DNA of 64,000 nt, taken from a virus. Below the pieces are notes generated by a model that had not been told where the DNA came from, did not search any database, and worked only from the letters and a program-made list of their open reading frames with translations. Shown here in pieces: positions 8,001-57,300 of this stretch (the first letter of the stretch is position 1; each line of letters starts with the position of its first letter). The translations under genes and the position numbers were made by a program. The stretch lies in the IMG/VR virus record IMGVR_UViG_3300042402_003181. One strand, written 5' to 3'.

Positions 8001-11000
8001 CTATTATTAGTTTCTTAGGCGGTAACGGTGCATATGTTGACGGAAGTAAGGTTGCTAATCCAAACGTTCCGACTAGCTTATTAGAAGTTGAAGTAAACCC
8101 TGCAGGTGCTGCACCTGTACAGTGTAAATCAATGATTGCAAATGCGTTTACTATGATTAGTTTTGGCGGTACAGGATGGCGTGTTACAAATGATGCGTAT
8201 GTTCAGTTAGTATCATGTTTCCAATTATTCTTACTAAATGGTGTTTATGCACAAAGCGGTGGTTATACGTCTATTACTAACTCTGCAACTAACTTTGGTA
8301 AGTACGCATTGCGATCTTCAGGCTATTCGCCTATTGCATACCCATACGATAAAGGTTTTGTATCCGCTGTTGGATCATCTGGAAGTATTCAAACAGTTAC
8401 TGCAATTGGTTTTACAAGACCAGATGGTCCAGTTGAACAATATGTTATTAGAATATACGATAATAACGCATTTACTTACAACGTAGCAATTTGCCAACGA
8501 GATATTGGTTTTATTATTGATGCAATTGGTTACGATATGATGTTTGGCGGTAACTTTAGATCAATTAAAGCTGCAATGACATATTATTCAACGCAAGCTG
8601 CAAACGTAGTTGGTGTTCAAAAAACTGCAACAATTGCAGGATTTACGTATTTACGAGACTATGTTGCTAATGCAGTTAATGGTGATCCAATAGCCGGAGC
8701 ATCTATTATTGCTAATATGAATACAATTAATGATATTGTTAATAACGGGTTGTCAGTAGTACCTGCATCAGTAATACCGGAACCATCTAACATCGATCCT
8801 GGTTTTTCAGATGCTGCTAGGTTACTTGCTGGTAATAAATTATTCTTACAAGCTGAAATAATAGCATTTATGTCGTCAACTTACACTGCATTATGGAGTA
8901 GTTTAACTGCACCGCAACGCTTGTTATGCCAACGCGATGTAGGATATATGGTTGATGCAATACAATATGATTTAATATACGCATGTAACTTAGAAACAAC
9001 TGTAATTGGAAGACTGTATTATAATCGATTAACTAACACTTTTGTAGAGAACGCTGGAGAAAAAACTGCAGCATTGGATGTAGTTTTAAGATTACGTGCA
9101 ATTGTTGAATATATTGTAACAAACAATACTGCAGGCTGGACAAAATCAGCTGGCAATGCAGCATCACAATTTATTAGTGGAACTGCTGCAACTCCTGGAG
9201 CAGTTACTTTTGCAAAGGCACGTTTCCAAGAAATATATGATACTATTAATACAGGTACAGAAACTGCAGTAGCAATATTGCCAGATACAACATGGGTAGT
9301 TGATGCTAACTTAGTTACACAATTTAACATTTTACAAACAACAAAAGACGCAATAAAAACATTTGTTACTGAATATATTTCTACTCAGTACGGCGCTACT
9401 GATTTAACATCACAGTATAAAGTGCAATCACCTAACTTTTTGCAAGTTTCATTTAATGCGTTTACTGAGATTGATATTGCAACTGATGTGTTTACAACTA
9501 GTACACCGCATGGGTTAACAAACGGTGACTCGGTTATCTACGACAGTACCGGCAATTCACCGTTGGGCGGACTGTTTACAGGTAGTGTATACTACGTGTA
9601 TTTCTTAAATACTGTGCAATTTAAATTAGCACACGATGATAGTTTAACATTACCGGTTGATGTAGTAGCATTAGGCACTGGTACACATACATTTACAAAA
9701 AATGATTATGAATTGTATGTTGACACAGTTACTAGCACACATACTACTTTCCAAACAATTGTTTTAACATCTGCTTATTCGTTTGCACCTGGTGATTTAC
9801 TTGAAGGTACAACCGGTGCATTGCCTAATAAAGCAAGCGTTTATAGCTATGATGGTGATAAAACTATTGTTGTTGCTATTAATTTTGTTACTATTGGCAT
9901 ATCACAAGAACGCAAACTATTTGCTACAAATTCAATTATAACAAAAATAAATGCAACTGTAGTTAGTTTAACGGTGTCGTCTGTAACATCAAGAAACGAC
10001 TTACATGCAGCTACATTTAACGTTGCATCAACATTGCTAGGCGGATTATTAGACAACGTTGGTACACTAGTTGGTAAACAAATTTTCTTCCATAGAGCAA
10101 GTATTGTAAACTCGTCTGGTCATACATGGGAATACGCAGGTTCAGGAATTGATTACAACGCGTTACCGACAAATGGTGGTAAAACAGATGTTAGATTTGA
10201 ACAATATCAAGAACGATCTGGGCGAGTATATACGTCAGGTACTAACGAATTAGGTGACTTTAAAGTTGGTGATTTTATTACCGCATATAACAGAACAGGG
10301 AACATTGTATTTAAAAATACTGTTACAGTTAGTCAGTTAAATGTATTAAAATTAGCGTTAAGTGACATTTCGGTTGATGCAATTAGTAATGACACTGGGT
10401 TAGGTGAAAATGAAGTTGGCGGACCATCTGATAGTAAATTAAGTACGCAGCTAGCAATTTGGTCATATGCAAATCAACGATTAGGTGCGTTTATTGATAA
10501 AGCAGTTAGTACTAACGCAGTACCTGGAGCACTAGTTCAATTAAATGCAACTGGGCAAATTAACGTTGACTTAATTCCGGCACAGCGAACATCTGCATCG
10601 GTTATTACATATGGTTACCGTTCACGATTAACTGCATACGATGATGTGCCATCTGTAAACTTTTTATCAGGTGATAACAGTACAGAAGAATTTGAAACTG
10701 TCACGTTAACGTTAAGTGATCCAATTACTGCATTAGATGGTGCAATTGTTACCCAATCTACTAGCGGTGCATCAGGTTTGTTAAAAGGCGATCATACTAA
10801 CGTAAATACTATTTTAGTAGCTAGTACTGGTTATACATTTACTACTGTATTTGATACAACTCCTGCGCATACACTTATTATTAATTTAGATTCAACACCA
10901 AGTACTACTAACACATCGGTGTATTGTTTAGTAGTCAGTGCTGCAATTAGCGCAACTGATAATAGTGTGTTACGTAATTCTACAACTAATCAATACTTAG

Positions 11001-14000
11001 TGTTACCTACTACTGGAACATATGTATATACATTTGTAGGTATTAGTAAGATTCTTAGATACAACAACATTGCATATGTTACTACCGACGCAGCACATTT
11101 ATTAGTATCATCTAATCAAGTTAAAATTACACCAACTACGTTAACAAATTACGCAGCTACACCGTATGTTACTGTGCTAAGTTCTACTAGATTTAGGTGT
11201 CCAAATGTTGGACCACAAACTCCTGCTGCTGCAACTACTACAAACACTGCAACAGTGCCTGCAACTACCGGAACTACTACTGTTACTGTTGCAAGTGCAA
11301 GTGTTTCCGGCGGCCCAATTCAGATTGGAGATTACGTATTTTCAAATATTAATAGTTTTCCAATAGGTTCAGTAGTAACCGGAGTAACTGGAACTACAAC
11401 ACTTTTAATTGCAATTGAATTTCCGTCAGTAAGTGATACTTCTACTGCATCATCGATAGCAGGATTAACATTTATTCGACCAATAACTGAAGCTGGTACA
11501 GTTCGATCTGTTATAACTGCAGTTAATAACAGTGCGCAAGGTGAAATTTCAAGCATACGAAAAGGCATGTTAACTGCAGTTAATAATTTAACAATTACTA
11601 GCGGTAGTTCCTATGTGTCAGGAACATATTATAGGGTTTCGTTATCTAATGTAACAGGTACAGGTTCTGGTGCATTAGCAAATATCACAGTTACTGGCGA
11701 TTCAGTAACGGCAGTAGATTTAACGTATGCAGGATCAGGTTATGCAGTTGGGAATACAGTAAGTGCATCATTGCCTGGTGGCAGTGGTTTTAGTATACCA
11801 GTTTCGGCAATTGAAACTCATGCATATATTAACAATATCTCAGATTTGTTTGTTGGGTCAAGTATATCACCAGATTTTGTTAGTGATAACGCTAGTGCAA
11901 TAAACACTATTACTGTGTCAAGTACAATTTCTAAAACATTTAATGCTTCAAGTGATGTTAATTACTCTACTAACAGAATAACTATTGCAACCCACGGTTA
12001 TTCTAATGGTGATTACGTAATGTATAATCCAGGTTCTAATCAACTAATATCCGGATTATCAATTACTCTACCGTATTATGTTAAACGAATTGATGCTAAT
12101 ATTATTGAACTGTATAGCGAATACTACCTAACTAATATTATATCATTAGGCACTAGTTCAACTGGTACACACACGTTTACAACAAGTGCAATAAACATTA
12201 CTAATAACAGATTGTACGTTGCGGCGCACGGGTTATCTACTGGTGATGCATTAGTGTTTACCGGAACTAACTTACCGTCAATTGATTCTAATCAGATTGG
12301 TGATAGATCGCATTTCTTTATTGGATCAGTTACAACTAACACATTTACAATTCACAATTTACGAAGTGATGCATTAGATAGTGTAAATGGCGTAGTGGTT
12401 GCCCCAAACAACATTACAAGTATTGGATCTAGTACATTATCTATGATTCATTATCAAGTTCAAATTATTGGGTATTCAAATACTAGTAGTAAACAAATAT
12501 CAAACTGGGGACTTTTAGCATCGTCAAGTATTGATGCAAGTAATATTGTGTCGGGCGTAGTTACAACTAGCAGATTAGCAACATCCGGTACTGCAAGTTC
12601 AACAACTTATTTACGAGGCGACTCTACTTGGTCAACTGCAGTTACAAGCATCCAGTCTTCAAACAGCGCGTTAACTATTACCGGATCTGGAATAGGTGCT
12701 ATGTACGGTGCATTAACATTTGATGTTGCAAAAACAACATTCCCAACTGATAATGGATCTTATTCAACATTAGGTGTTGCTAGTTTTAATATTAATCAAT
12801 TTACAGTTGGTACAGGCGCCACTGCTGGTCTAGTTTATATTACTGCAGGAACAATTGATGCTGGTACATTAGATGGTAACGACTCGTCGTATTACTTAGA
12901 TCCTGTAAACTTATCTGCATCAATACCACTCAATAAAGGCGGTACTGGAATTAGTGTGTATACTGCAGGCGATATGATTTATGCAAGTACGACAACAAGC
13001 TTAAATCAACTTCCAATTGGGCCAGCTAATACTATTTTATCAAGCAACGGTACATTACCGTATTGGGCGCCGTCATTATCATTAGCAACTGTTATTAAAA
13101 CAGGTGCTGGCGAGATTTCAACTACTAATGCAGGTTCTGCAAACGTATTTAATACGAATGCATTAACATTAAATGTTGGTGGAGCAGCAACTAGTGTGTA
13201 TTTAGGTGCAAATTCTACAGGTATAACATTAATTAATGTTAAGAGCTATACTACAAACGGTGCATCAAGCACTACTGTTTCAGCAGTATATGGTATTGTT
13301 GCACCTATTAGCACCGCAGCTAGAAATAATAGTGGAGTATCAACTATTGTTACTACTATACCGCACGGTTTAACTGCAGGTGATCTAATTACGGTTGTGT
13401 GTTTGTCTGACCCGTCGTACAACGTAAGAAACGCTGTAGTATCAGTTACTAACACAACTACATTTACCTATTCAAATGCTGGCTCGTTAACTACCGTTGT
13501 TGCAAGTACTGGTTCAATATTTACTGGGTCACAATCATTATCATTAGCAACGACTGCTGCAAACGGTGATACTAAATTAATTTTTGGTAGTACTGCTGGA
13601 GTTATTATTGGCCAAATTGTATTAGGTAATTCGCATATACCTACAAATACAACAGTTATTGGTATTGATGCGTTAAATATTTATTTAAGTGCAGCAATCA
13701 CTGATGTAATTATGTCAGCTACGTCAATTGTGTTTGTTCACACTAATGCTAGTTTAGGTATTGCTACTGGTAACCAAATAACTATTGCGTCATCTGGTAT
13801 AACAAATTTAGACGGTACATGGCCAGTTACTAGCGCATCTTCATTTTCAACATCATTTAGTATTTCAATAACTACTGCAATTACTGCATCATCTGCTCCT
13901 CGCGTAGGTAATATTACTAAAGCTAATTCATTAGTATTAAAAAATAAAAATATTACAATTGGTAGCAGTGAAGCAAGTGCAACTCCGGTTGCAGCTACAT

Positions 14001-14554
14001 TAATTGGTGAAAAATCAGTAGGTACAAATGTTGCAGGTGTTGATTTTAATATTATCCCTGGAACAGGAACAGGTAATGCAGCATCAGGTAGTTTTGTAGT
14101 AAAAACAGGTAACGGTGCAGCATCAGGCACATCACCCCAAACTCCGACTACTAAGTTAACTATTGATAATAATGGTATTGCAACATTTACAAATTCAGTA
14201 GTTATAAATCAAAACATTGAAGTACACGGTGTTAATACTACTGGAATTACTAATGCAGCAGCTGTGCCAGTAAAATCATTTTCAAAGACAGTTTATAGAA
14301 GTGCTAAATTAATATTCCAAGTAACTTGTACGTCGGGACCAAATGCAAATACATATCAAATTGGTGAAGTTTTAATCATCCATGACGGTACTACTGCATA
14401 TATGGCAGAATACGGTGATATTAAAACTGGTGCAAACATGTTAGCAACATTTACTTGTGATATTGATGGATTAGATAACGTTCGAATTTTAGCACAAGCA
14501 CTTACTGGTGATACTATTTCAGTTCGTGTAGTAAGTAGTTTAAATATTATATAA
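5057..14554 (+). CDS. Giant virion structural/fibre protein (3,165 aa)
   Basis: Contains fibre-shaft cassettes, NTAIG-type beta-roll repeats, a beta-helix-like region (VYVSESKGNDLNDG...SPYVQNCS), two CxRD helical repeats and several HG(L/Y)xxGD repeats. Confidence 0.8.
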   Translation: MSKNLSNILKGGTLPVIHGGTGVTVSTGTGSVVLNTSPSLVTPDIGIATATSINKVMFTQPTGNATLTIANNKVLTVSNTISFTGTDSAAVEVSTGGTVTYTKDKLSVFSTTTSAELAGVISDETGYVAGAILMFNDSPTIKNSIVTTSTSFDLLNTNATTVNFASAAGTISIGASGTGTTTINHNLQVAGDIFFNGTASQLSASTIEVTDTLVMLAKNNPGDIVDVGWYASYIATATGVKTYTGLVRDASESDRSWKLFSGTITAPSTTIDFGNAVYDNLKIAALTATTGNFSGQITSTLAQGTAPFSVVSTTPVTNLSIGGNAATVTTNANMTGPITGTGNVTSITSQTGTGTKFVMDTSPVLITPTIGVATATSINGLTLTASTGTLTIATDKVLTVSNTLTFTGTDTSSVAFGAGGTVAYTGGTGTKLSSFAATTSDELASVISDETGTGKLVFANTPTLITPAIGAATGTSVVLTSDSTINGLTIGLGGSNVASNTVIGFSAFSGNTTGTSNIAIGMQSLYGSTTANVNTSVGSQSMQNVQDGSANVGIGAGTLYSNTSGAQNTAIGAFAGYGSNGVNANTTGTNNVYVGYSTIGSAIDNTNEIVIGSLAVGLGSNSTVLGTTSTTTATIYGALSIPNTTASSSSITGALKVAGGVGIGGNLYVEGNLSVNGLITTINSTTITVDDKNLELGSTASPTDVTADGGGITLKGLTDKTFTWSAASNSWVSNVGITASSIQNTPIGSTTASSGNFTGITVENGGSLILKETSLNGINYISIKSPDSLAADYTITLPTTVGTAGQVLSTDGNGALTFVDSDVFGGNVVYVSESKGNDLNDGLSLPVRTIKRALQIASGMVYNSLGAVNRIRAVVSVAAGNYVENNPVIIPDNVSVEGAGLRACVIRPLNANKDMFRLRNGGYFAQFTFRDGITASGVASYTWAYAFAFDDVFDTQCDRTGYINLPSNRPTMTLSPYVQNCSIISFLGGNGAYVDGSKVANPNVPTSLLEVEVNPAGAAPVQCKSMIANAFTMISFGGTGWRVTNDAYVQLVSCFQLFLLNGVYAQSGGYTSITNSATNFGKYALRSSGYSPIAYPYDKGFVSAVGSSGSIQTVTAIGFTRPDGPVEQYVIRIYDNNAFTYNVAICQRDIGFIIDAIGYDMMFGGNFRSIKAAMTYYSTQAANVVGVQKTATIAGFTYLRDYVANAVNGDPIAGASIIANMNTINDIVNNGLSVVPASVIPEPSNIDPGFSDAARLLAGNKLFLQAEIIAFMSSTYTALWSSLTAPQRLLCQRDVGYMVDAIQYDLIYACNLETTVIGRLYYNRLTNTFVENAGEKTAALDVVLRLRAIVEYIVTNNTAGWTKSAGNAASQFISGTAATPGAVTFAKARFQEIYDTINTGTETAVAILPDTTWVVDANLVTQFNILQTTKDAIKTFVTEYISTQYGATDLTSQYKVQSPNFLQVSFNAFTEIDIATDVFTTSTPHGLTNGDSVIYDSTGNSPLGGLFTGSVYYVYFLNTVQFKLAHDDSLTLPVDVVALGTGTHTFTKNDYELYVDTVTSTHTTFQTIVLTSAYSFAPGDLLEGTTGALPNKASVYSYDGDKTIVVAINFVTIGISQERKLFATNSIITKINATVVSLTVSSVTSRNDLHAATFNVASTLLGGLLDNVGTLVGKQIFFHRASIVNSSGHTWEYAGSGIDYNALPTNGGKTDVRFEQYQERSGRVYTSGTNELGDFKVGDFITAYNRTGNIVFKNTVTVSQLNVLKLALSDISVDAISNDTGLGENEVGGPSDSKLSTQLAIWSYANQRLGAFIDKAVSTNAVPGALVQLNATGQINVDLIPAQRTSASVITYGYRSRLTAYDDVPSVNFLSGDNSTEEFETVTLTLSDPITALDGAIVTQSTSGASGLLKGDHTNVNTILVASTGYTFTTVFDTTPAHTLIINLDSTPSTTNTSVYCLVVSAAISATDNSVLRNSTTNQYLVLPTTGTYVYTFVGISKILRYNNIAYVTTDAAHLLVSSNQVKITPTTLTNYAATPYVTVLSSTRFRCPNVGPQTPAAATTTNTATVPATTGTTTVTVASASVSGGPIQIGDYVFSNINSFPIGSVVTGVTGTTTLLIAIEFPSVSDTSTASSIAGLTFIRPITEAGTVRSVITAVNNSAQGEISSIRKGMLTAVNNLTITSGSSYVSGTYYRVSLSNVTGTGSGALANITVTGDSVTAVDLTYAGSGYAVGNTVSASLPGGSGFSIPVSAIETHAYINNISDLFVGSSISPDFVSDNASAINTITVSSTISKTFNASSDVNYSTNRITIATHGYSNGDYVMYNPGSNQLISGLSITLPYYVKRIDANIIELYSEYYLTNIISLGTSSTGTHTFTTSAINITNNRLYVAAHGLSTGDALVFTGTNLPSIDSNQIGDRSHFFIGSVTTNTFTIHNLRSDALDSVNGVVVAPNNITSIGSSTLSMIHYQVQIIGYSNTSSKQISNWGLLASSSIDASNIVSGVVTTSRLATSGTASSTTYLRGDSTWSTAVTSIQSSNSALTITGSGIGAMYGALTFDVAKTTFPTDNGSYSTLGVASFNINQFTVGTGATAGLVYITAGTIDAGTLDGNDSSYYLDPVNLSASIPLNKGGTGISVYTAGDMIYASTTTSLNQLPIGPANTILSSNGTLPYWAPSLSLATVIKTGAGEISTTNAGSANVFNTNALTLNVGGAATSVYLGANSTGITLINVKSYTTNGASSTTVSAVYGIVAPISTAARNNSGVSTIVTTIPHGLTAGDLITVVCLSDPSYNVRNAVVSVTNTTTFTYSNAGSLTTVVASTGSIFTGSQSLSLATTAANGDTKLIFGSTAGVIIGQIVLGNSHIPTNTTVIGIDALNIYLSAAITDVIMSATSIVFVHTNASLGIATGNQITIASSGITNLDGTWPVTSASSFSTSFSISITTAITASSAPRVGNITKANSLVLKNKNITIGSSEASATPVAATLIGEKSVGTNVAGVDFNIIPGTGTGNAASGSFVVKTGNGAASGTSPQTPTTKLTIDNNGIATFTNSVVINQNIEVHGVNTTGITNAAAVPVKSFSKTVYRSAKLIFQVTCTSGPNANTYQIGEVLIIHDGTTAYMAEYGDIKTGANMLATFTCDIDGLDNVRILAQALTGDTISVRVVSSLNII
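8461..9390 (+). repeat. Two phycobiliprotein-like CxRD helical repeats
   Basis: ICQRDIGFIIDAIGYDMMFGGN (Cys codon 8492) and LCQRDVGYMVDAIQYDLIY (Cys codon 8927). Confidence 0.7.
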
Positions 14555-14563
14555 GGAAAATAA

Positions 14564-18022: not shown

Positions 18023-18032
18023 GAAACACAAC

Positions 18033-27483: not shown

Positions 27484-27494
27484 TCAAAGGATTT

Positions 27495-35604: not shown

Positions 35605-38600
35605 ATGGCTGAATTTAAACTAGGTAGAATACGATTCATATGGAAAGATGAGTGGACTCCATCCACATCTTATCTACGAGATGATGTTGTTAGAAACGGT
35701 GGTAAAGCATACGTTTGTATAGCAGGGCATACTAGCTCTGTTTTGTTTACAACTGATTTAACCGGTATTCCTACAAAATGGAATCAAGTATCTGACGGTA
35801 CTACATGGAGATCAAACTGGACAGTTAACACATATTACAATTTAAATGATTTAGTAAAATATGGTGGAATTGTATATATCTGTAATAATAGTCACAACTC
35901 TGCAGCAACTCTTGTATTAGGCCTTGAAGCAAATCAAAGCAATTGGACATTATATGCAACTAGCTTTGATTGGAAATCAACTTGGACAGTATCAACAAGA
36001 TATAAAAAGAATGATGTTGTAAAATATAGTGGTAGAAATTATGTGTGTAATGCTGGTCATACTTCTGCAGCAACATCTGCGCTGGGTCTTGAAAATGATC
36101 AAGGTAAATGGGATTTATTTACTGATGGTTTTACATGGTTAACTGATTGGACAGTATCAACAAGATATAAAGTAAATGATGTTGTAAAGTATGGAGGACA
36201 GACATATGTGTGTAATGCTGGTCATACTTCTGCAGCAACCGCTACGTTAGGTCTTGAAAATGATCAAGGTAAATGGGATTATTTCCATAAAGGTGTTAAT
36301 TATTTAGGTCAATGGAGTGGAAGTTCTGTTCGTTATACAGTTAATGACTTAGTAAACTACGGTGCCGATGTTTGGATATGTACAACATACCATACATCAT
36401 CTACACTATTTGAAGAATCAAACTGGGCAAGATTTGTTGAAGGGTTAACTTATGAAGATTCATGGGATAACGCAACACTTTATCAGCCTGGAGATATTGT
36501 TGGGTACGGTGGTTATTCATATATTAGTAAAACTAATAATTCAAATAAAACTCCTACTGCTAACGCAAGTGATTGGTCTTTATTTACAACCGGATTTTCG
36601 TTTATTGGAGATTGGGCATCTGGGCAATCATATTTAGTTGGTGATGTTTTACGAAATGGTGCGTACACTTACGTAGTTACAGCTGATCACACTTCTGCAT
36701 CTAACAATCAACCACCAAATGTTACTTATTGGTCAAGATTAAACTCAGGGGTAAAATGGGCAAATACTAATAAGACATATACTGCATTAGCAGGTACAAA
36801 CATAACAGCTGCTGGCAGCTCTGCAACATTTGATGTTAGTACAATTGGTACTTCTTACACTGTTACTAAAAATGCAGGTGGTACTGGATATGCTGCAAAT
36901 ACAACCATTAAGATATTAGGTACACAAGTTGGCGGGTTATCACCGTTTAATGACGTGTTAATTACTGTTGCTACTGTTTCGGGTAATGCAATTGCTACTA
37001 TTACAGCAACTGGCTATGCAGCAACATGGGATACTAGTGTTAACTATGTGTTAGGCGATACTATAAGTGTTGGACCAAACAGTTATATTTGTATTTTAGC
37101 ACATACAAGTGCAAGTGGTAACAGACCGGATGTTGATGTATCAGGACAGTACTGGAATGTGATTGCTGCGGGTGCGCAAGACTCGGTGTTAACAACAGCT
37201 GGTGATATACCATACATGAGTCAAAGTGGTCCTACACGATTAGCAATCGGTGACCCTGGTCAGGTGTTAAAAGTTTCACCAACGTTACTACCATCGTGGG
37301 GATATTTTGGTGTTATTGATCAAATTTATTATGTTGGGCAGACTGGCTTAAATAATCCAGCACCAAGTTATGGCGCAACTTTAGATCGTCCGTGGTTAAC
37401 TGTTAGATATGCAGCTGAACAAGTTACAAACGGACCATTAAATCCAAATGCAAAATATTTCTTAACAAATAACCGGGCATATATTCAAAAAGAAGTTATT
37501 GGATGGATTAATTCACAAATAACTAATAATACACTACCATTTACATCAGCATTTACTTATAATGAAAGTAAATGTGAGCGTGATATTGGCTATGTAGTTG
37601 ATGCGTTAGCTTATGACTTATCGCATGGTGGCAATGCTAAAGTTGTAGAAGTTGCTCAATCGTATGTATCCGGAAGTTACACTGTATTAGGTACCCAATC
37701 AAGCCAAGATGTTGCTGGATATAACTATATGTTGTCTGTTATTAATTCAGTAATTGCAAGTACTTCACCAAATACTTCATATCAAGCAACAGTAACAAGA
37801 GTTTCAAATAATCTTAAACCTGTTGAACCTGGCGTAGTTACATTGTTATCAAATTTAGTAGGTGTTATCACAGCAGCAATTACTGCCGGTGTAAGTACAA
37901 ATATTCCGGCGGTTGTTAGTACAACTTATTCTATTTTTGTTAAAACAGGGATTTACTATGAAACACTTCCAATTATTGTTCCAGATAATACGTCAATTAT
38001 TGGAGACGAATTACGATCAACAAATATTAGACCGTCCCCGTCGTTAATTGCAAGTAACGATATTGCAAAATCAATTTCAGCAGTTACATATATTCAATCA
38101 ATTACGTCAGATATTATATCAAACACTACAGTTGCATCGCCGTATCAGGTTACAGTTTCTCAAGATGTGCATTTGCCAGCAGGATCTGTCGGTAGTACGT
38201 CTGCAGTAACTGCAGTATCGGAAAATGCCGATGTAATGTACACAATTCTCAATGGCGGTACAGTGTCAGCACCTCCTTATACATACACCGACCCAACAAG
38301 TTATAATACTGGATTTTTAAATGCTAGACGATTAATTAATGCTAACAAACAATTTTTAAAAGATGAAGTTACTGCATTTATGGTACTTAATTACAGTTCA
38401 ATATGGACTATGTTAGGTCCAGCAGGTCAAGCATCATGTACGCGTGATATTGGCTATATTGTTGATGCAGTATACTACGATTTAACATACGGGACTACTC
38501 TTATTCCTTGTAATTTAGCTACAACAATTGTTGCAAGATCATATTATAGCAATAATAATTTTGTTGAATTAATTACTGAAAAACCTGCAGCATTGGCTGT

Positions 38601-41600
38601 TCAAGATAGAATTAAAACAATTATCGCAAGCATTGCACAAGGCACTGCGATTACTAGAACTACCGGAAACACTACTACGCAAGATGTTAGTGGTTCGGGA
38701 GGTTCGACGAATGCTGGTACATTTGCACAAGATCGTATTCAAGAAATTTATAATACTATAAACACCGGAATTACACCAACATTACTTGCACCAACAACAA
38801 GTTGGGTTGCTAGCGGTCTAGTTGCAGCAAATACTGCATTACAAGCAGCAAAATCACAAATACAACTTGATTGTCTAGCGTATGTTAAAGCGCATAATGC
38901 AACATTATTGTTTAATCAAACTACGTGTTCGCGAGATGTTGGATATATGATTGACGCAATTGGGTATGATATGATGTTTGGAAGTAATTTCTTATCATGT
39001 CAAACTGGCATGTCGTATTACAGAGCAGTAGCGTCGGCACAAATTGTATTATCAGGACAAAAATCTGCAACTTTAGGAATGATAACGTTCTTAAAATATA
39101 CTGCAAAATATATTGCAGCATCGGGATCAGCAGCACTTGCTAATGCATTGTGGACAGATGTTATTGCAAATATGAGCGGAACAAGTGTTCCAAATGCAGG
39201 CAGCAACTTTACAAATGCAAGTAATGACGCAATTAATGGCGCATATCAGTTGCTTGCAAATGCTGATTTTCTTGCAGCTGAATCAGTTGCGTATATTAAT
39301 ACATTTAATACTACTGTTACTGCAAGTTCAACTACTACATTCACATGTACAAGCACCAGTTGGATGGTAGCCGGAGACAAAATTACATTTACTGGATCAA
39401 TATTTGGTGGAATTAATTTAAGTGTTAACTATTATATTCATACAGTAGTTAACGGAGTTTCGTTTAAAATTTCATCTACAGTAGGTGGATCTGCAGAAAC
39501 CTTAACTACTGGTACTGGATCTATGATTGTTTCTTATGTTTATGATCCAATTTCGTGTGCAAGAGATATGAAAATTTTAGTAACTTCAGTTGCTAATGAC
39601 ATTATTAATATTGGAAATTATTCATCTCAATGGAGTGCAGCGTGTTATTCAACTGCAGTATCTGGTTCTCTGTTATCTGATATGTTCTATGTTAGAAATT
39701 CAACAGGTATTAGGAATTTAACAGTACAGGGATTAACTGGCACTTTAGGACCTGTAAATAGCTATGGTACAAAACGTCCAACTGCTGGCGCATATGTTAG
39801 TTTAGACCCAGGTTGGGGACCAAATGATAGACGTACCTGGATTACATCACGGTCACCGTATATTCAAAATGTTACAACATTTGGTACAGGGTGTATTGGG
39901 TTAAAGATTGATGGAACTATACACAGTGGCGGAAACCGTTCTGTTGTAGCAAACGACTTTACTCAAATTTTAAGTGACGGTATTGGTGTTTGGTGTACTG
40001 GTTCACAATCATTAACTGAATTAGTATCTGTGTTTTCGTACTACGGATATATGGGATACTTAGCTGAGAACGGCGGTAAAATTCGTGCTACTAATGGTAA
40101 CAGCTCGTATGGTACGTATGGCACAGTTGCTGAAGGTGTTGATATTTATGAAACTCCATTGATTGCAACGGTTAACAATTATGCTAACCAAGCACTTATT
40201 ACTAATGTAATAACTAACGCAGTTGATAGAATTTACAGAGTTGAATTCTTAAATGCTGGTACAAAGTACAATACTGCTACATTTTCATTTAGTGGAACAG
40301 GTTACGGTGCAGTATCAGTTGCTAACGAATTTAGAGATAACGCAGTGTTTGAAACAAAATTGTTATCAAATGGTGAAAATTATGTAACATCTGCTAACAC
40401 TGGACAGTCAGGCAATACTACATCAATAACCATTGCTGCAGTTGATTTGGCAATTAATTCAACATATATTGGAATGAGCATTCAAATAACTAGTGGTTTA
40501 GGAACAGGACAATACGGCTATATTGTAAGATATAATTCAGGATCTAAAGTAGCAATGGTTGCAAAAGAAAGTTTCAGTGCAATAGTTGCAACCGGAACGA
40601 CTGTTACTTCAAATCTAATCACAGTTCCGAGTACTGCTACATTATATGTTAACATGCCGGTTATATTTACCGGAACTGCAATTGGTGGATTAGCAGTTGG
40701 AACAGTGTACTATGTAATTTCTACAGGATTTACATCAACTCAATTTTCAGTTAGCACAAGCGTTGGAGGATCAGCAGTTACTTTATCGACAATAACTGCA
40801 AGTACAATGACTTTAAATGCTGCAGGATGGGATCATGTGGTATCAGGTACTCCAATTCTAGCAGCGTTAGATACTACCTCATCGTATATAATTGAACCAA
40901 GAGTACAATTTGCAAGTCCTGGTTATTCTGCAACGTCAGTAACACAACAAAATGCTGCATGGATTGATTCAATTTACGGGGATATTAATACTACGTATAC
41001 AGCAGTATCACCGACTGGGGGTGCTGGTACAAGTGCAACATTTAATATAGTTAAAACTGGTGTATCATATGCAGTTACTTTAAATGCAGGCGGTATTAAT
41101 TATGTTAAAGACAATGTATTAACTATATTAGGTACGAGTTTAGGCGGAGCTGCTCCATTAAACAACTTAACGATTACTGTAAATAACGTTGTAAACGGTG
41201 TTATTAGTAACTTTACATATAACGGTTTAGGAGCTGGCGGTAATTATGTTGCAATCGCAGGTTCAGGTACATTAACTCAATATAGTGTTGATGGTACTAA
41301 TTGGGTCACAGGAGGAGCTCTTCCAGTTAGTTCGTCATGGACTGCAGTAACTTATGGTACATTAAGCGGAGTAGGTACATGGGTTGCAGTACAAAACGGA
41401 TCATTAAATACTGCAAAAAGTGTAGATGGCGGCGCAACATGGTCAAGTGCAGGATCGTTATCAACAACAGGTAATTGGTCAGATGTTGCATACGGCAATA
41501 ATAGATACATTGCAGTGTTATCCGGATCAGCTACTGCTAATATTACATCAAATGCTACTGTATGGACATCAACTGGTGCATTACCTACGCCTACTACGTG

Positions 41601-43098
41601 GACTAGTGTTGCATATGGAGCAGGTACATGGGTAGCAATTGCAAGTGGTGGCACATCTGCTGCATATTCAATTAATGACGGAACTTCATGGACACCTGCA
41701 GCATTACCAGTTGCTGCAACGTGGAAAAGTGTTACGTATGGTAATGGTAAATTTGTAGCAATTGCAAGTGGAAGTACTATTGCTGCATATTCGTTAAATG
41801 GTATCACATGGTACTCAAGTCAGCCGTTGCCAGCATCGCAAGCATGGACACAAGTAAAATACGGACAAGGTGTATTCTTTGCAGTAGCAACCGGTACTAC
41901 AACTATTGCTGCATCGTCAGAAGATGGAATTGCATGGATTAGCAGAACGTTATTAACATCAACATCTTGGCCTACTGTATCATTTGGTAATCCAAATAGT
42001 ACTCCAATTTGGGCAGCGTTATCAAGTGCAACTACGACTGCTAACAATATTGTTACTGGTGCAACGGCTCAAGGTCGTGTTAAAGTATCGTCAGGTTCTA
42101 TATCAGAATTTAGAATTGTTGAACCTGGAAGCGGTTACAATGCAATACCAATTGTAACTGTAACTGACTCAAACGTAACCGCTCCATTTACATGGCAAGT
42201 AAGAACAGGGGTAGGTGTATTAGCAAACCCGACATTTAATAATAGAGGAACCCAGTATTCAGTTGCATCTGCAAGCGTAATTGGTAACGGATATGCTGAT
42301 ATGTTCCAACCAGGAAATTATGTTAATATTTCAGGTTTAGCATCAGCTCCAATTCCAGGTTCAAATGTTGTATTTACTGGGGATCCAACTTATTATAAAT
42401 TGGTTGCAGTATTGAATTATATGGGGACTGGCGGAGGGCAATCCCCATATAACGCCACACTACAGCTAAGTCCTGCAGTACCAATTGCAAATGCGCCAGC
42501 ACACGGAGTTATTGCAACTATGCGAATTCAATATAGTCAAGTTCGATTAACAGGACACGACTTTTTAAATATTGGAACTGGTAATTTTCCAAGCACTAAC
42601 TTCCCTGGTGCACCTGCATTAGCAGTTGATTCAGAAAAACAAACTGTGGCATTTGGCGGCGGACGGGTATTCTATACAAGCACTGACCAAGATGGTAACT
42701 TTACGGTAGGTAATTTGTTCTCAGTACAACAATCAACTGGTGTTGCAACATTGAATGCAGATGCATTTAACATCGCAGGGTTAAATCAGTTAACATTAGG
42801 TTCAGTAACATTAGGCGGCACAAGTGCTACTATTACTTCATTTTCAACTGATCCGTATTTTACAGCAAATAGCGATAATGTAATACCAACACAAAAAGCT
42901 ATTAAATCATATATTAGTAGCCAAATCGGTGGAGGTGGTAGTTCTCTGAACGTAAATACAATAACCGCAGGTGTTGTGTATATTGCAGGCAACACTATTT
43001 CAACAACAACGGGTGTACAGATCAATGTAGCAAACACTATGAATTTCATAGGCGGTGTATCTGGATCACCGCTAGCAATGAACTTCTTATTATCTTAA
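35605..43098 (+). CDS. Giant virion structural protein (2,497 aa)
   Basis: Same architecture as the 29802 gene, plus four CxRD helical repeats (Cys codons 37573, 38437, 38926 and 39556). Confidence 0.85.
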   Translation: MAEFKLGRIRFIWKDEWTPSTSYLRDDVVRNGGKAYVCIAGHTSSVLFTTDLTGIPTKWNQVSDGTTWRSNWTVNTYYNLNDLVKYGGIVYICNNSHNSAATLVLGLEANQSNWTLYATSFDWKSTWTVSTRYKKNDVVKYSGRNYVCNAGHTSAATSALGLENDQGKWDLFTDGFTWLTDWTVSTRYKVNDVVKYGGQTYVCNAGHTSAATATLGLENDQGKWDYFHKGVNYLGQWSGSSVRYTVNDLVNYGADVWICTTYHTSSTLFEESNWARFVEGLTYEDSWDNATLYQPGDIVGYGGYSYISKTNNSNKTPTANASDWSLFTTGFSFIGDWASGQSYLVGDVLRNGAYTYVVTADHTSASNNQPPNVTYWSRLNSGVKWANTNKTYTALAGTNITAAGSSATFDVSTIGTSYTVTKNAGGTGYAANTTIKILGTQVGGLSPFNDVLITVATVSGNAIATITATGYAATWDTSVNYVLGDTISVGPNSYICILAHTSASGNRPDVDVSGQYWNVIAAGAQDSVLTTAGDIPYMSQSGPTRLAIGDPGQVLKVSPTLLPSWGYFGVIDQIYYVGQTGLNNPAPSYGATLDRPWLTVRYAAEQVTNGPLNPNAKYFLTNNRAYIQKEVIGWINSQITNNTLPFTSAFTYNESKCERDIGYVVDALAYDLSHGGNAKVVEVAQSYVSGSYTVLGTQSSQDVAGYNYMLSVINSVIASTSPNTSYQATVTRVSNNLKPVEPGVVTLLSNLVGVITAAITAGVSTNIPAVVSTTYSIFVKTGIYYETLPIIVPDNTSIIGDELRSTNIRPSPSLIASNDIAKSISAVTYIQSITSDIISNTTVASPYQVTVSQDVHLPAGSVGSTSAVTAVSENADVMYTILNGGTVSAPPYTYTDPTSYNTGFLNARRLINANKQFLKDEVTAFMVLNYSSIWTMLGPAGQASCTRDIGYIVDAVYYDLTYGTTLIPCNLATTIVARSYYSNNNFVELITEKPAALAVQDRIKTIIASIAQGTAITRTTGNTTTQDVSGSGGSTNAGTFAQDRIQEIYNTINTGITPTLLAPTTSWVASGLVAANTALQAAKSQIQLDCLAYVKAHNATLLFNQTTCSRDVGYMIDAIGYDMMFGSNFLSCQTGMSYYRAVASAQIVLSGQKSATLGMITFLKYTAKYIAASGSAALANALWTDVIANMSGTSVPNAGSNFTNASNDAINGAYQLLANADFLAAESVAYINTFNTTVTASSTTTFTCTSTSWMVAGDKITFTGSIFGGINLSVNYYIHTVVNGVSFKISSTVGGSAETLTTGTGSMIVSYVYDPISCARDMKILVTSVANDIINIGNYSSQWSAACYSTAVSGSLLSDMFYVRNSTGIRNLTVQGLTGTLGPVNSYGTKRPTAGAYVSLDPGWGPNDRRTWITSRSPYIQNVTTFGTGCIGLKIDGTIHSGGNRSVVANDFTQILSDGIGVWCTGSQSLTELVSVFSYYGYMGYLAENGGKIRATNGNSSYGTYGTVAEGVDIYETPLIATVNNYANQALITNVITNAVDRIYRVEFLNAGTKYNTATFSFSGTGYGAVSVANEFRDNAVFETKLLSNGENYVTSANTGQSGNTTSITIAAVDLAINSTYIGMSIQITSGLGTGQYGYIVRYNSGSKVAMVAKESFSAIVATGTTVTSNLITVPSTATLYVNMPVIFTGTAIGGLAVGTVYYVISTGFTSTQFSVSTSVGGSAVTLSTITASTMTLNAAGWDHVVSGTPILAALDTTSSYIIEPRVQFASPGYSATSVTQQNAAWIDSIYGDINTTYTAVSPTGGAGTSATFNIVKTGVSYAVTLNAGGINYVKDNVLTILGTSLGGAAPLNNLTITVNNVVNGVISNFTYNGLGAGGNYVAIAGSGTLTQYSVDGTNWVTGGALPVSSSWTAVTYGTLSGVGTWVAVQNGSLNTAKSVDGGATWSSAGSLSTTGNWSDVAYGNNRYIAVLSGSATANITSNATVWTSTGALPTPTTWTSVAYGAGTWVAIASGGTSAAYSINDGTSWTPAALPVAATWKSVTYGNGKFVAIASGSTIAAYSLNGITWYSSQPLPASQAWTQVKYGQGVFFAVATGTTTIAASSEDGIAWISRTLLTSTSWPTVSFGNPNSTPIWAALSSATTTANNIVTGATAQGRVKVSSGSISEFRIVEPGSGYNAIPIVTVTDSNVTAPFTWQVRTGVGVLANPTFNNRGTQYSVASASVIGNGYADMFQPGNYVNISGLASAPIPGSNVVFTGDPTYYKLVAVLNYMGTGGGQSPYNATLQLSPAVPIANAPAHGVIATMRIQYSQVRLTGHDFLNIGTGNFPSTNFPGAPALAVDSEKQTVAFGGGRVFYTSTDQDGNFTVGNLFSVQQSTGVATLNADAFNIAGLNQLTLGSVTLGGTSATITSFSTDPYFTANSDNVIPTQKAIKSYISSQIGGGGSSLNVNTITAGVVYIAGNTISTTTGVQINVANTMNFIGGVSGSPLAMNFLLS
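35983..36279 (+). repeat. Near-identical tandem duplication with 165-bp period in the CBM-like repeat region
   Basis: 35983-36114 and 36148-36279 share long identical DNA runs, e.g. TATGTGTGTAATGCTGGTCATACTTCTGCAGCAAC and GGTCTTGAAAATGATCAAGGTAAATGGGAT. Confidence 0.9.
37440..39670 (+). repeat. Four phycobiliprotein-like CxRD helical repeats
   Basis: KCERDIGYVVDALAYDLSHGGN, SCTRDIGYIVDAVYYDLTYG, TCSRDVGYMIDAIGYDMMFGSN and SCARDMKILVTSVANDIINIGN. Confidence 0.7.
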
Positions 43099-44573: not shown

Positions 44574-44585
44574 AGAGGATATAGT

Positions 44586-46021: not shown

Positions 46022-46030
46022 AGGAATAAT

Positions 46031-46762: not shown

Positions 46763-46766
46763 TAAT

Positions 46767-47414: not shown

Positions 47415-47422
47415 CAGTCATT

Positions 47423-47449: not shown

Positions 47450-47450
47450 A

Positions 47451-49253: not shown

Positions 49254-49256
49254 TTT

Positions 49257-50174: not shown

Positions 50175-50175
50175 A

Positions 50176-51183
50176 TTATTTTGGGCAGCAAGCTGAAGTT
50201 GGAGCAGCAGATGATTCAATTGCTACTGTTGTATTAACTGGATTTTTAAATTTTCTACTACCTTTTATTACAGAATCAACAATTGCATCTTCAATTTTAT
50301 CATTCATTATCATAATACCGTCATTACCTCGATCAGCAACTTCATCCATTGTTATTCTAATCGGACTGTATCGTCTAATATCTCCACCCATATCTAAAAC
50401 ATCAAACTTATCATAATCCGGATAGGAAACGTTAATTGAGAATGTTGATCCTACTACAATAGTAGCTGGTTTATCTAACGAATATGCTAAATGTTGTCCT
50501 ACAGAATCACAACCTAAGAAGTAGTCTGCATTTGCAATAATGCCTGCCCATTTACGTAGATCAATGTTTTGTGGCATTGCAACTACGTCTTTACAACCAT
50601 GTTTAGCAAATTCAATACCAAATTCTGCCATTACTACTACTGCAAAATTTTTCTGTAATTTTTTAACAATATTCAGTAAATGAGTACTTTCAAAACTACG
50701 TCCAGATGCATCATATATAACACCGTCCTTGTTAGTTACGCCACGACCAAATGGTTGAAACACAACTACTTTGTCTTTTTTAGTTTTTTCTTTAACTTCT
50801 TTAATTGCAAAATAACCTGTAAGCATTTCGTCATTTGATAACCGCATTGTTGGTTTTTGTAATGTTCTAACGCCTTTATTGTTAATTGCAATATCATATG
50901 CTTGCGCAATTGAACATTTTTGATTATAATATTCCCAAATACGATATGGTTCTGGAGATACTAAATCCATATTAATAAGTTTATCTTCAAATAAATTTTT
51001 GTGCCAATGATCGTACGCACGTTCGTGTAATAACGGATGGCCTTTATAAAAGTCAGTGCCGCCTTCGCATACTATAATAAAATCTTTACTAACTTCTTCT
51101 GCGTATTTTTCTAATGCTGGTATAGAACAGATTACTCTACCTGCTCCTCCATTGATAAAAAACGCTTTTGCTCTTTCTGTCAT
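50176..51183 (-). CDS. Glycosyltransferase, GT9 (heptosyltransferase)-like GT-B fold
   Basis: GGAGRVICSIPAL at the N-terminus and LRKWAGIIANADYFLGCDSVGQHLAYSLDKP near the C-terminus; AGGAG RBS. Confidence 0.75.
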   Translation of the reverse strand: MTERAKAFFINGGAGRVICSIPALEKYAEEVSKDFIIVCEGGTDFYKGHPLLHERAYDHWHKNLFEDKLINMDLVSPEPYRIWEYYNQKCSIAQAYDIAINNKGVRTLQKPTMRLSNDEMLTGYFAIKEVKEKTKKDKVVVFQPFGRGVTNKDGVIYDASGRSFESTHLLNIVKKLQKNFAVVVMAEFGIEFAKHGCKDVVAMPQNIDLRKWAGIIANADYFLGCDSVGQHLAYSLDKPATIVVGSTFSINVSYPDYDKFDVLDMGGDIRRYSPIRITMDEVADRGNDGIMIMNDKIEDAIVDSVIKGSRKFKNPVNTTVAIESSAAPTSACCPK

Positions 51184-51212
51184 GTGTACTCCTTATTTTT
51201 GATTACTATAGT

Positions 51213-51241
51213 ATTTTAGCAGAAAACAAACCATAAGTCAA
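51213..51241 (-). promoter_or_regulatory. Sigma70-type promoter for the inverted enzyme operon
   Basis: The minus strand reads TTGACT-17 nt-TAAAAT, with an extended -10 element (TGc-TAAAAT). Confidence 0.75.
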
Positions 51242-51254
51242 TAGTTTTGAGTTA

Positions 51255-51262
51255 GATAAATA
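51255..51262 (+). promoter_or_regulatory. Late promoter-like element (GATAAATA)
   Basis: 18 nt before the ATG at 51281; divergent from the sigma70 promoter. Confidence 0.6.
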
Positions 51263-51280
51263 TACAAAACGAGAACTATT

Positions 51281-52888: not shown

Positions 52889-52891
52889 ACT

Positions 52892-53698: not shown

Positions 53699-53713
53699 CA
53701 ACATGGAAAAAAT

Positions 53714-54328: not shown

Positions 54329-54339
54329 CGGAGATATAA

Positions 54340-57300
54340 ATGGCAAAACAAAGAATACAAAATTACGTTTTTTTACCCGGTGTTTCGAGTAGCAGTAATG
54401 CTTATCCAAATGCGTATTCTCTATTATCAACAAATAAAGAATTTTTAAAAGCAGAAACAAAAGCATATATTAATGCACAGATTGCAGTAGATACTGCATC
54501 AAACTTATACCCAAATGCAGTTACATTATTAACTAATAATAAAGCATTTATTATTGATGAAATTATTGCGTGGGTTGCATATCGTGTAACTAATAATATT
54601 TCTCCATTTGTAGGATATACTTATAGCGTGGCATCTTGTAGACGTGATACTAGTTATCTCATAGATGCGCTTATTTATGACATTAGATACGGTGGCAATG
54701 AACAAACTATTGATATTTGTAAAAATATGTGGCAAGGTGGTGCAGCTCAGTTAATATCTCCTACACAAGAGATTGCAGGGTTTACTCAAATATTTACAAT
54801 AATTACAAACTTTATTTTACCAAAGACTGCGTACACAAGCCAACAAAGTCCAGTAACTTCTACACAAAACATAACAGGTACTGCAGGCGAAGCAGCTGTT
54901 CCAAATCGTATAAATTCATTACGAGATTTGTTAACTAATTCAATTCCAAATGGCTTATCTGTATTACCACCAATAACTTATTCGTTAAGAAAGTTTGCAG
55001 GATATGCATACAATCAGTCACGTTGCGATCGTGATATTGGTATGTTATTAGATGCCTATCTATATGATTTAAGATACGGCGGCAATTTTAAAACTAGATA
55101 CGTGTCGTCTAAATTTTGGAATGGAGTTATTCCTCAAATTGTAGGCGATAGACAACCTGAGATTACTGCACAGACCTTTTTAAGAGATTTAGTAATTAAC
55201 ACTGTGTTTACTCAAACTGCGTATACACCGTTGCAAACGACTATTGATATAGTAACTAACGGATTAACTATTGCAGAATCAGGTAGTTCGGCAAGAATAA
55301 CGTCATTATCAAACGAATTTTTAGGTGTGCTTACTAACGGATTAACAAGTATGCCAGCGTTAACTACTGGTGTAACTACTATTAAACTACAAGGCAAGTA
55401 TAAATTAGATTCGATATTGTTAATCACAAATACAACGTCTAATCAAATTTTATATAACTTTAGTGATCCGTCAATAGGCGGCAGTGTGTTTATTGACGAT
55501 GGATATGTTAGTAACGATTTTTATACAGAAGAAGATTTTCCATCATTTAGACAAACTACTGACCATGTAACTACCTTAATTTTAGGCGTAGACACATCAA
55601 CCGGATCGGTTGCAGATGACATTCAAATTTTTGTAGAAGCTAAAGAACAACGAACTCGTCCGTATGATTATGGTACTGATGCGATTGAACGTCAACGTGT
55701 TGCTCAACCGCAATCTATGCTTGACGCTGACTTTGAATACGGATTACAACCTACTAAATGGCAAGCTATTGGTATTAGTAGAGGGTATCCATCAGTATAC
55801 GAAGTGCCTGGCACCGATACTCCGGTATTAAATGTTACAACAGACGCTAGTGCAGGAACAGGCGGAACTGGCGAATCAACAATTACGGTAACAACAAGCT
55901 CACCTCATGGTTTTACTGTAGGAATGCCATTTACAATTAAAGCATTAGCAAATAGTATTTCTGGTTTTTCGAGAGCAGAAGGCACGTTTTTAATTAACAC
56001 AGTTCCAACAACTACAAGCTTTACATATTATGCCGTATCTAAAGTTGGGTCAACTAATGGTCAAGTTCTTGCAACAACATATACACAATTAAGAAAAGGA
56101 AGTTTCTATACAGGCTCAGCAATCGGAACTCCGACATTTGCTGTATATAGTAACGGATCAACTACTACATTAACTACTCAATTCATAACTACAGTAGGAT
56201 CTGATCAGCTTGCATTTACCGGAACTCCGCCGGCTGTAGGCGCGCCACTATCAGGGTCAGCATCTCTTACATCCGGATCTCAAGTCGCAGGTGTTGTAGG
56301 TCCAGGTGGCATTGCATTAACTGCAAACATAGAAACAAGTGTTAGTATAAACGATACGGTAGTTGTGTTAACGTCGGCATCTGGTGTATTAGAAGGAATG
56401 GCAATTGATAACGGCGCAGGTACTGCAATCTTTGTTAGTAATGTATCCGCAAACACAGTTAGTCTTACTGGTCCAATTGTTACTGCACGGTTAGGGAATA
56501 CTGCAACTTACTCAAATATATCCGGCACTAATATACTAGTTACTACAGCAAGTGCTACATTTAACGTAAGCCGTGTAGACGGTGAATATCAAGCTACTGT
56601 TATCGACGGCGGAACTGGTTACATTGAAGGAAATCGAATTGTAATTTTAGGTACATCAGTAGGAGGTGCTACTCCTTTAAACGATTTAACTATTACAGTA
56701 TCAACAATATTAGCAGGGGTTATTCAAACAATTTCTGTATCTGGAACTAGTATCTCAGGCAACGGATCATATACAAATGTTACTCCAAATACTACTACTT
56801 CAGTGTCTGGAGCAGGAGCAACTTTTGATGTAACACGGTCAAATGCAGGTTACGGATTGCTAATAAATCAATCAGGAACTGGGTTTTTAGTTAGCGAAAC
56901 TTTAACTATTTTAGGTATAAGCTTAGACGGACTAAGTCCGGATAATGATTTAGTTATTACTGTTGATAGTATTAATGTAGATGGGGGGATTGTTACATAT
57001 TCACTTATTGGCGTTCCTGTTACTAGTAATGCAGTGTTTGGTACGTTGAGCGGGACAAATGTTGCTGCTGCGGGTACAAATGCGCAATTTAATATTACTA
57101 GATCAAATAGTGCATATTCATTAACTATTAATGATCCAGGTATTGGGTACTTTGTTGGAGATCAAATACTAATACTAGGAACCAGTATTGGCGGAGCAAC
57201 TTCTGCAAACGATGCAACTATACTTGTTACAGGAGTAACTAACAACACAATTACCTCAGCTACTATTTTAGGTACCTCGGTTACCGGTGTTACGTTACCG

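Follow-up and report, generated by a model that had tools for sequence, protein, structure and literature searches.

A repeated helical domain with a C-x-R-D motif is present in four giant proteins encoded by a stretch of viral DNA of 64,000 nucleotides (the window, by which the whole stretch is meant), which corresponds to bases 70,550-134,549 of the 175,916-base uncultured virus record IMGVR_UViG_3300042402_003181. The repeat is a large, previously uncatalogued phage domain family. Structure models and profile alignments indicate that the domain very probably has a phycobiliprotein-type globin fold, with homology to phycobiliproteins. The overall explanation favored here, in which these tail-fibre domains constitute a bilin-carrying branch of the bilin-binding globins, is given a probability of roughly 50%. 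Phycobiliprotein-like repeats in "four giant virion proteins" had been claimed in an earlier reading of the window (the original prediction), and this wording is correct. With a profile built from the copies (E down to 1e-42), eight full and two partial copies were found in the 176-kb record, all of them within four giant open reading frames (ORFs). These are listed below in window coordinates; bit scores refer to the domain profile.

5057..14554, + strand: P0001, giant fibre protein of 3,165 amino acids (ORF; PHROG tail fiber phrog_5342, E 2e-161), with two tandem phycobiliprotein-like domains
8372..8800, + strand: domain copy in P0001, Cys codon at 8492 (CQRDIGF); hmmsearch envelope, 139 bits
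8792..9229, + strand: domain copy in P0001, Cys codon at 8927 (CQRDVGY); hmmsearch envelope, 168 bits
29802..35546, + strand: P0002, giant fibre protein of 1,914 amino acids (ORF; Pfam CBM_5_12 in 7 stretches; PHROG tail fiber phrog_9851), with one domain copy after the CBM_5_12 repeats, followed by a putatively beta-rich C-terminal part
31356..31808, + strand: domain copy in P0002, Cys replaced by Thr (TIRD, codon at 31500), Arg and Asp retained; hmmsearch envelope (151 bits) and motif
35605..43098, + strand: P0003, giant fibre protein of 2,497 amino acids (ORF, Pfam, PHROGs), with CBM_5_12 repeats and three full and one partial domain copies
37429..37863, + strand: domain copy in P0003, Cys codon at 37573 (CERDIGY); 176 bits, the copy modelled with AlphaFold
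38302..38742, + strand: domain copy in P0003, Cys codon at 38437 (CTRDIGY); 159 bits
38806..39228, + strand: domain copy in P0003, Cys codon at 38926 (CSRDVGY); 150 bits
39526..39669, + strand (record 110075-110218): degenerate partial copy in P0003, core helix only, Cys codon at 39556 (CARDMKI); profile positions 31-78, E 5.6e-6
54340..59985, + strand: P0004, giant virion protein of 1,881 amino acids (ORF; PHROG virion structural protein phrog_5838, E 1e-249), with two N-terminal domain copies
54391..54501, + strand: partial copy in P0004, first helix only; profile positions 2-30, 9.4 bits, E 2.4e-6
54496..54927, + strand: domain copy in P0004, Cys codon at 54637 (CRRDTSY); 169 bits, the copy used for the replicate AlphaFold model
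54952..55314, + strand: domain copy in P0004, Cys codon at 55024 (CDRDIGM); 134 bits

The eight Cys codons and the single Thr codon lie exactly where they had been predicted, and the 1,881-residue protein does contain seven Cys, two of them within the motif. In P0002 and P0003, chitin/carbohydrate-binding CBM_5_12 repeats, 5-7 in number, occupy the N-termini (window 29802-31300 and 35605-36700), before the globin-like domains.

When 1.84 billion representative proteins were searched with the same profile, 1,447 protein clusters were retrieved, of which 556 score at E<=1e-30; hence, the repeat is far beyond chance. Tandem arrays reach 36 copies per protein, and single proteins reach 6,382 residues. 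Spacings within the arrays are most often 130-170 residues, the domain profile itself having 138 positions. All genomic contexts retrieved for domain genes were phage, and in one of them a 16-copy gene is immediately preceded by the genes for a T4-type portal, prohead protease and gp23. The domain has no specific model in Pfam, NCBIfam or PHROGs: Pfam and NCBIfam searches of the whole giant proteins returned nothing besides CBM_5_12, and PHROGs returned only generic "tail fiber" or "structural" names. The ESM Atlas gave no usable match, and no description of the domain was found in literature searches that paired phage fibres with phycobiliprotein-like, globin or bilin terms.

An AlphaFold2 model of one P0003 copy (37393-37920) showed six helices, with a pLDDT of 90.2 and a pTM of 0.85; a replicate AlphaFold model of a P0004 copy (54457-54939; pLDDT 91.8) gave the same ranking of structural matches. 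When compared with the PDB by Foldseek, the P0003 model reached TM scores of 0.53-0.60 (best E 1.2e-3), the range for both models being 0.53-0.64, and every match listed for the two is titled phycobiliprotein or phycobilisome except 8u0f, "Bacterial fluorescent protein". In a VIA-align search, which is independent of Foldseek, the top eight matches of the P0003 model were allophycocyanin, phycoerythrin and the ApcE bilin domain, with Z scores of 14.0-11.0 (best match: Z 14.0, rmsd 3.0, 132 residues aligned). The top six of the P0004 model were phycobiliproteins or the ApcE bilin domain (Z 12.8-11.1); VIA cautions that for helical proteins a Z below about 13 may reflect a common arrangement. 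The lead over other globins in these structure searches is modest. Third-party models of cyanophage tail and fibre proteins, deposited in BFVD, superpose on the domain model with TMq up to 0.83. The globin/phycobilin-like fold that had been proposed, with AlphaFold and Foldseek named as the check, is thus borne out by two models for which phycobiliproteins rank first.

Profile comparisons led to the same relatives, with a similarity to phycocyanin that is weak yet specific. A profile of the eight copies, searched against 177,635 PDB sequences, matched phycobiliproteins only, 21 of the 22 being phycocyanin alpha (best E 0.0025), and with a profile of 135 diverse copies from 60-odd viral loci, 33 of 34 matches were phycocyanin alpha chains. 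The hhalign comparison with 34 CpcA and CpcB sequences from cyanobacterial genomes gave a probability of 90% over 97 columns. HMMER and hhalign agree on the register: the Cys, Arg and Asp of the motif fall on Cys84, Arg86 and Asp87 of phycocyanin, and the conserved Asn and Tyr that precede the Cys align with Asn47 and Tyr74 of phycobiliproteins. The likeness of the motif to phycocyanin alpha, on which the original prediction had been built, is reproduced for Cys, Arg and Asp in these alignments. The outcome of the proposed search with the PF00502 profile was mixed; matches were seen, one of the eight copies reaching E 0.007, but the best score in the record (15.8 bits, for the P0001 copy at 8372..8800) and those of relatives (12-17 bits) do not reach the gathering threshold of 22.2 bits. 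The N-terminal X-Y helix pair was likewise not found, as the alignment starts at CpcA residue 36-39 and the model of the first P0003 copy opens with coil; a domain of 138 positions at a spacing of 130-170 residues leaves little room for such helices. Since it stays below the PF00502 cut-off and is without X-Y helices, the domain is regarded as a distinct branch of the bilin-binding globins and not as a phycobiliprotein proper.

The conservation of the motif was analyzed in 1,278 near-full copies, whose mean identity is about 29%. The Cys is kept in 95%, the Arg in 95% and the Asp in 99% of these; Asp60, which lies 14 residues after the motif Cys, is kept in 100%, Tyr76 in 98% and an Asn of the first long helix in 82%. 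No second Cys is conserved, 83% of the copies are without any other Cys, and the motif Cys makes up 41% of all Cys in the parent proteins. Poor conservation or disulfide bonding of the Cys had been named as grounds for abandoning the prediction; what is seen instead is a residue conserved in 95% of the copies with no conserved partner.

Other identities for the domain were considered and set aside. A heme globin was rejected because no profile column has His above 10%, and hence there is no conserved proximal His; a thioester or ester cross-link domain because the fold is wrong and the Gln/Glu position is mixed; and an intradomain disulfide because of the solitary Cys just described.

The few copies in which the Cys has been lost (64 of the 1,278) are informative. 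Compared with Cys-bearing copies, they retain Arg in 56% vs 97.5%, Asp in 77% vs 100%, Tyr76 in 70% vs 99.6% and Tyr41 in 48% vs 83%, whereas Asp60 is kept regardless of the motif Cys (100% without it, 99.7% with it). In 30 of the 64, Phe, Tyr or Trp takes the place of the Cys, as if a bulky side chain were filling the space by the Cys. From this circumstantial evidence, drawn from sequence variation, the Cys, Arg and Asp of the motif together with the two Tyr appear to behave like a ligand site. The C-x-R-D motif is the bilin attachment and hydrogen-bonding motif of phycobiliproteins; the bilin biosynthesis-associated globins BBAG-1 and BBAG-3, phycobiliprotein paralogues with C-x-R-D, attach bilins without a lyase, and by phylogeny the characterized members of the bilin-binding globin clade bind bilins (PMC10151467). 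On these grounds, on those of pigment supply and distribution given below, and judging from sequences and models, putative bilin binding by the domains on the virion is plausible, with the odds close to even.

The record is estimated by CheckV to be 48% complete, and its major capsid protein shares 65-70% identity with the counterparts in giant phages, including Sinorhizobium phage Phosso, Vibrio phage 2.275.O and Pseudomonas phage PA5oct. Just one of 42 domain-bearing viral records is near-complete (G014, 353 kb); it has adjacent genes for heme oxygenase and a ferredoxin-dependent bilin reductase (FDBR) and no psbA. Viral records were then re-selected by FDBR similarity alone. Without G014 and G010, which had first been found via the domain, 10 of 11 such records of at least 128 kb contain it. 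The three records that are 94% complete or more all have the domain, in 8-9 copies each. Among these three are G044 and G043, with capsid proteins 91% and 89% identical to that of the window; they are among the closest known relatives of the window's phage. Heme oxygenase was present in 5/5 related records tested (G043-G047), beside the FDBR gene in G043 and G044, and 5-aminolevulinate synthase (AlaS) was present in G044 and G014. The fibre domain genes of G014, G043 and G044 (94-98% complete) lie 67-210 kb from the heme oxygenase/FDBR cassette. No phytochrome PHY or GAF domain was found in the seven giant genomes searched and no canonical phycobiliprotein in the related giant genomes (PF00502 scores of 12-17 bits); hence, the fibre domains are the only bilin-binding-type fold seen in these genomes. 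Phages with hemO-pcyA/X-alaS have been described, and the purpose of these genes in phages of non-cyanobacterial hosts was stated to be unknown (PMC11480375).

It was also considered whether G014 is collinear with the record; this was rejected, as none of its ORFs at 20-60 kb match, and G014 is a more distant relative. In G014, the heme oxygenase and FDBR pair (G014:C1:34556-38799) follows genes for Hsp70, an IbpA-like small heat-shock protein and ClpS, such that a cluster of chaperones and a proteolysis adaptor adjoins the pigment genes in this 353-kb genome. On an 18.8-kb viral contig, an AlaS gene (TIGR01821, 566 bits; L003:712-1941, - strand) lies about 500 bases from a giant gene (L003:2465-16864) that encodes a protein of 4,799 amino acids with 31 phycobiliprotein-like repeats.

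Among cultured phages, the domain was found almost only in cyanophages. Three domain queries against 50,697 cultured phage records matched Synechococcus or Prochlorococcus phages in 110/110, 31/31 and 179/180 cases, the remaining record being titled "Marine". Domain copies and the outcome of a profile search for FDBR in individual phages are as follows.

P-HM1: 4 domain copies, FDBR found
P-HM2: 4 domain copies, FDBR found
S-PM2: 9 domain copies, FDBR not found
Syn9: 3 domain copies, FDBR not found
P-SSM4: 3 domain copies, FDBR found
P-SSM2: 0 domain copies, FDBR found
P-SSP7: 0 domain copies, FDBR not found
HTVC008M: 0 domain copies, FDBR not found
Phosso: 0 domain copies, FDBR not found
PA5oct: 0 domain copies, FDBR not found
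Vibrio 2.275.O: 0 domain copies, FDBR not found

A bilin source, either a cyanobacterial host or the phage's own cassette, is available in 8/8 complete or near-complete domain-bearing genomes tested, and the domain is present in 0/4 phages without such a source (Phosso, PA5oct, Vibrio 2.275.O and HTVC008M). A one-sided Fisher test, calculated by hand, gives p about 0.015 for this association; it ignores relatedness, and there are effectively two lineages. The part of P0004 outside the repeats shares 47% identity with a structural protein from cyanophage S-CAM1. Megablast of P0004 against cultured phages gave no match. A few phages whose hosts are not cyanobacteria also encode homologues of this non-repeat part, namely a Puniceispirillum phage, Actinomycetia phage DSL-LC01 and virus Rctr197k, and no globin-like domain was detected in these three with tblastn domain queries.

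In the dark, adsorption was reported to fail in P-HM1 and P-HM2 but to proceed in P-SSM2 and P-SSP7 (PMC6628666), and the adsorption of several cyanomyoviruses was reported to be likewise light-dependent (PMC2984593). The domain tracks this published behavior in the five phages that can be compared, a small sample, being present in the light-dependent S-PM2, P-HM1 and P-HM2 and not detected in P-SSM2 and P-SSP7; light still enhances the adsorption of P-SSM2.

According to the proposed explanation, a phycobiliprotein-like domain, either single or in tandem arrays of up to 36, is built into giant tail-fibre and virion proteins. Each domain would bind a linear tetrapyrrole in the cytoplasm before the fibre is assembled, probably through a thioether to the conserved Cys. 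As no lyase gene was seen, attachment is proposed to be self-catalyzed, as it is in BBAG-1, BBAG-3 and ApcE. In the freshwater giant phages of roughly 350 kb, to whose clade the window belongs, the bilin would come from the phage's own heme oxygenase and FDBR, and 5-aminolevulinate synthase may boost its supply; in the marine T4-like cyanophages, it would be supplied by the cyanobacterial host. The chromophores on the fibres of one virion might then number in the order of a hundred or more. Light sensing that gates the deployment of the fibres or adsorption would be their most attractive role. A fibre-borne bilin photoreceptor that gates adsorption by light is nevertheless speculative, and taken on its own it is rather unlikely. 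The other roles that had been suggested, photoprotection and mimicry of the host surface, found no support in the analysis.

A number of observations weigh against bilin-carrying fibres. The runners-up in the VIA-align search (Z about 10-11) are heme sensor globins, RsbR-type globins and the photocobilin bilin domain. Deepening the alignment does not strengthen the match to phycocyanin (E about 0.005), and mainly the N-terminal half is covered; the PF00502 scores are sub-threshold; and in the models a loop of 26 residues follows the long fifth helix. The most invariant residues, Asp60 and Tyr76, are not signature residues of phycobiliproteins. Five related giant genomes yielded no lyase of the T-type (CpeT) or S-type (CpeS), the 176-kb record yielded neither heme oxygenase nor FDBR, CpeT, psbA or AlaS, and FDBR was found in 0/10 fragmentary close capsid relatives. 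The search for pigment genes that had been advised thus came out negative for heme oxygenase, FDBR and CpeT in the record itself and positive for heme oxygenase and FDBR in its nearest near-complete relatives; all the computational checks that had been suggested turned out either neutral or favorable to the prediction. The structural region of G044 is syntenic with the window's record, but 0/25 ORFs within the 20 kb surrounding the cassette of G044 have a counterpart there; the cassette is therefore most simply missing from the record because half the genome is missing, and for want of this neighborhood the 0/10 count in fragments is uninformative. The co-occurrence of domain and bilin source is confounded with fibre-gene ancestry, since P0004 resembles cyanophage proteins outside its repeats too; an unrecognized cyanobacterial host of the giant phages may be a further confounder. 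Either could yield the same distribution. Finally, no description of coloured phage particles is known to us. By a rough estimate, a load of about 150 bilins per virion would amount to only about 0.02 absorbance units in a suspension of 1e12 particles per ml, and a colour this faint could easily have gone unnoticed.

Some of these points fit a domain that descended from a bilin-binding globin and is now chromophore-free, serving as a helical spacer, a stiffener or a receptor-binding bead in trimeric fibres; this is a tentative possibility that deserves to be taken seriously. The C-x-R-D motif, Asp60 and Tyr76 would then be kept for folding, for contacts or a disulfide between chains, or for a metal site, and the restriction to cyanophages and their giant relatives would follow from fibre-gene ancestry. 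Tandem arrays with as many as 36 copies do resemble a structural repeat, the strongest invariants are not those of phycobiliproteins, the missing lyases and the lack of bilin genes in the window's record agree with such a domain, and lineage alone could explain its distribution, the rest of P0004 being homologous to cyanophage structural proteins. On the other hand, folding alone hardly explains why one unpaired Cys is 95% conserved in Cys-poor extracellular proteins, nor why Cys, Arg, Asp and the two Tyr are lost jointly, as in a ligand site, while the fold residue Asp60 stays. Three near-complete giant genomes encode heme oxygenase and FDBR, two of them AlaS as well, with no other acceptor fold in sight, and the characterized members of the bilin-binding globin clade do bind bilins (PMC10151467).

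A pocket ligand other than a reduced bilin, such as biliverdin or heme from the host, a small hydrophobic molecule, or a metal held by three symmetry-related Cys of a trimer, is improbable. It would suit the general globin fold and the scores of sensor globins and the biliverdin-binding photocobilin domain (Z about 10-11), biliverdin being bound by BBAG-2 and photoglobins (PMC10151467), and it would suit the many domain-bearing cyanophages that lack FDBR, for instance S-PM2 and Syn9. Against it, the profile has no conserved His, which makes proximal-His heme unlikely; C-x-R-D typifies binders of reduced bilins and is not present in BBAG-2 (PMC10151467); and the phage cassettes contain FDBR and not just heme oxygenase. 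That the likeness to phycobiliproteins is convergent altogether, an unrelated helical bundle with a chance C-x-R-D...Y-x-L..GG helix towards which AlphaFold was drawn by a familiar fold, is very improbable. The E-values against PDB sequences are marginal (0.0025-0.005) and the VIA caution on helical proteins applies, but HMMER, hhalign (90%, 97 columns) and two structure searches give one register, the upstream-helix Asn and the Tyr before the Cys align as well (Asn47, Tyr74), and the BFVD models made by others show the same fold.

A comparison with known systems helps to place the bilin-binding-globin branch proposed here. With the phycobiliproteins (CpcA/CpcB, allophycocyanin and phycoerythrin; PF00502), the phage domain has a globin-type fold in common (Z as high as 14.0), and its C-x-R-D occupies the equivalent helix; also shared are the conserved Asn one helix earlier, the Tyr ahead of the Cys and the G-G that comes after the helix. 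It is only about 15-20% identical to them, falls below the Pfam cut-off, is without the X-Y helices for alpha-beta pairing, has invariant residues of its own (Asp60 and Tyr76) and is not accompanied by T- or S-type lyase genes; phycobiliproteins are antenna proteins, whereas the phage domain resides in virion-fibre proteins of 1,100 to 6,400 amino acids in arrays of up to 36. The bilin domain of the core-membrane linker ApcE is similarly embedded in a large multidomain protein (VIA Z 12.3 and 11.5). It attaches its bilin autocatalytically. Unlike the phage domains, it occurs just once in its protein, has an inserted loop and carries its Cys at another place, and it is a component of the phycobilisome core. 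Heme globins and globin-coupled sensors are structurally less similar (Z 9.7-10.8), and their conserved proximal His is missing from the phage domain.

The BBAGs (Rockwell, Martin and Lagarias 2023, PMC10151467) are, like the phage domain, phycobiliprotein paralogues outside the antenna, and, going by their description, BBAG-1 and BBAG-3 share C-x-R-D with it. What defines the BBAGs is a genomic association with heme oxygenase and FDBR genes; in near-complete relatives of the phage, such genes are encoded in the same genome as the domain, but they were not found in the 176-kb record. BBAGs are small stand-alone cellular proteins encoded beside pre-PcyA, whereas the phage domains are fused into structural proteins and encoded about 67-210 kb from the cassette. 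As for the enzymes, cassettes of the kind known as phage hemO-pcyA/pcyX-alaS (PMC11480375) and cyanophage ho1/pebS/pcyA occur in near-complete relatives of the phage. The papers on these cassettes cover enzymes only and name no phage bilin acceptor, mentioning BBAGs just as a possibility.

If the domains do carry bilins, this would be, to our knowledge, the first virus particle with built-in chromophores. The orphan pigment genes of phages (hemO, pcyA/pcyX/pebS, alaS and perhaps cpeT) would gain a phage-encoded substrate, and phages, giant phages without photosystem genes included, would carry genes for heme oxygenase, bilin reductase and even 5-aminolevulinate synthase in order to make stoichiometric pigment for their own particles. 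Bilin-bearing domains would also offer a specific molecule to which the light-dependent adsorption of cyanomyoviruses might be traced, and would explain why several of these adsorb only in light, independently of host photosynthesis. Self-attaching tandem bilin domains, if real, may be of interest as fluorescent tags. Even if free of pigment, the family would provide a phycobiliprotein-type globin as a fibre building block, a large unannotated family and a viral branch of the bilin-binding globins.

The window as a whole is a structural-gene region, with genes for a T4-type major head protein, baseplate wedge-like proteins and fibre proteins; a 2OG-Fe(II) oxygenase and a carbamoyltransferase are encoded there as well. 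The oxygenase gene and two paralogous phrog_7084 genes lie inside the fibre cluster (window 26887-28966), and their products may modify virion proteins. The Nol-type carbamoyltransferase gene and two more genes lie on the opposite strand within this cluster (window 47451-51183, - strand). Between the giant fibre genes (window 43797-47414) there are five small paralogous genes, three of phrog_4205 alternating with two of phrog_9740, which are "tail fiber assembly"-like.

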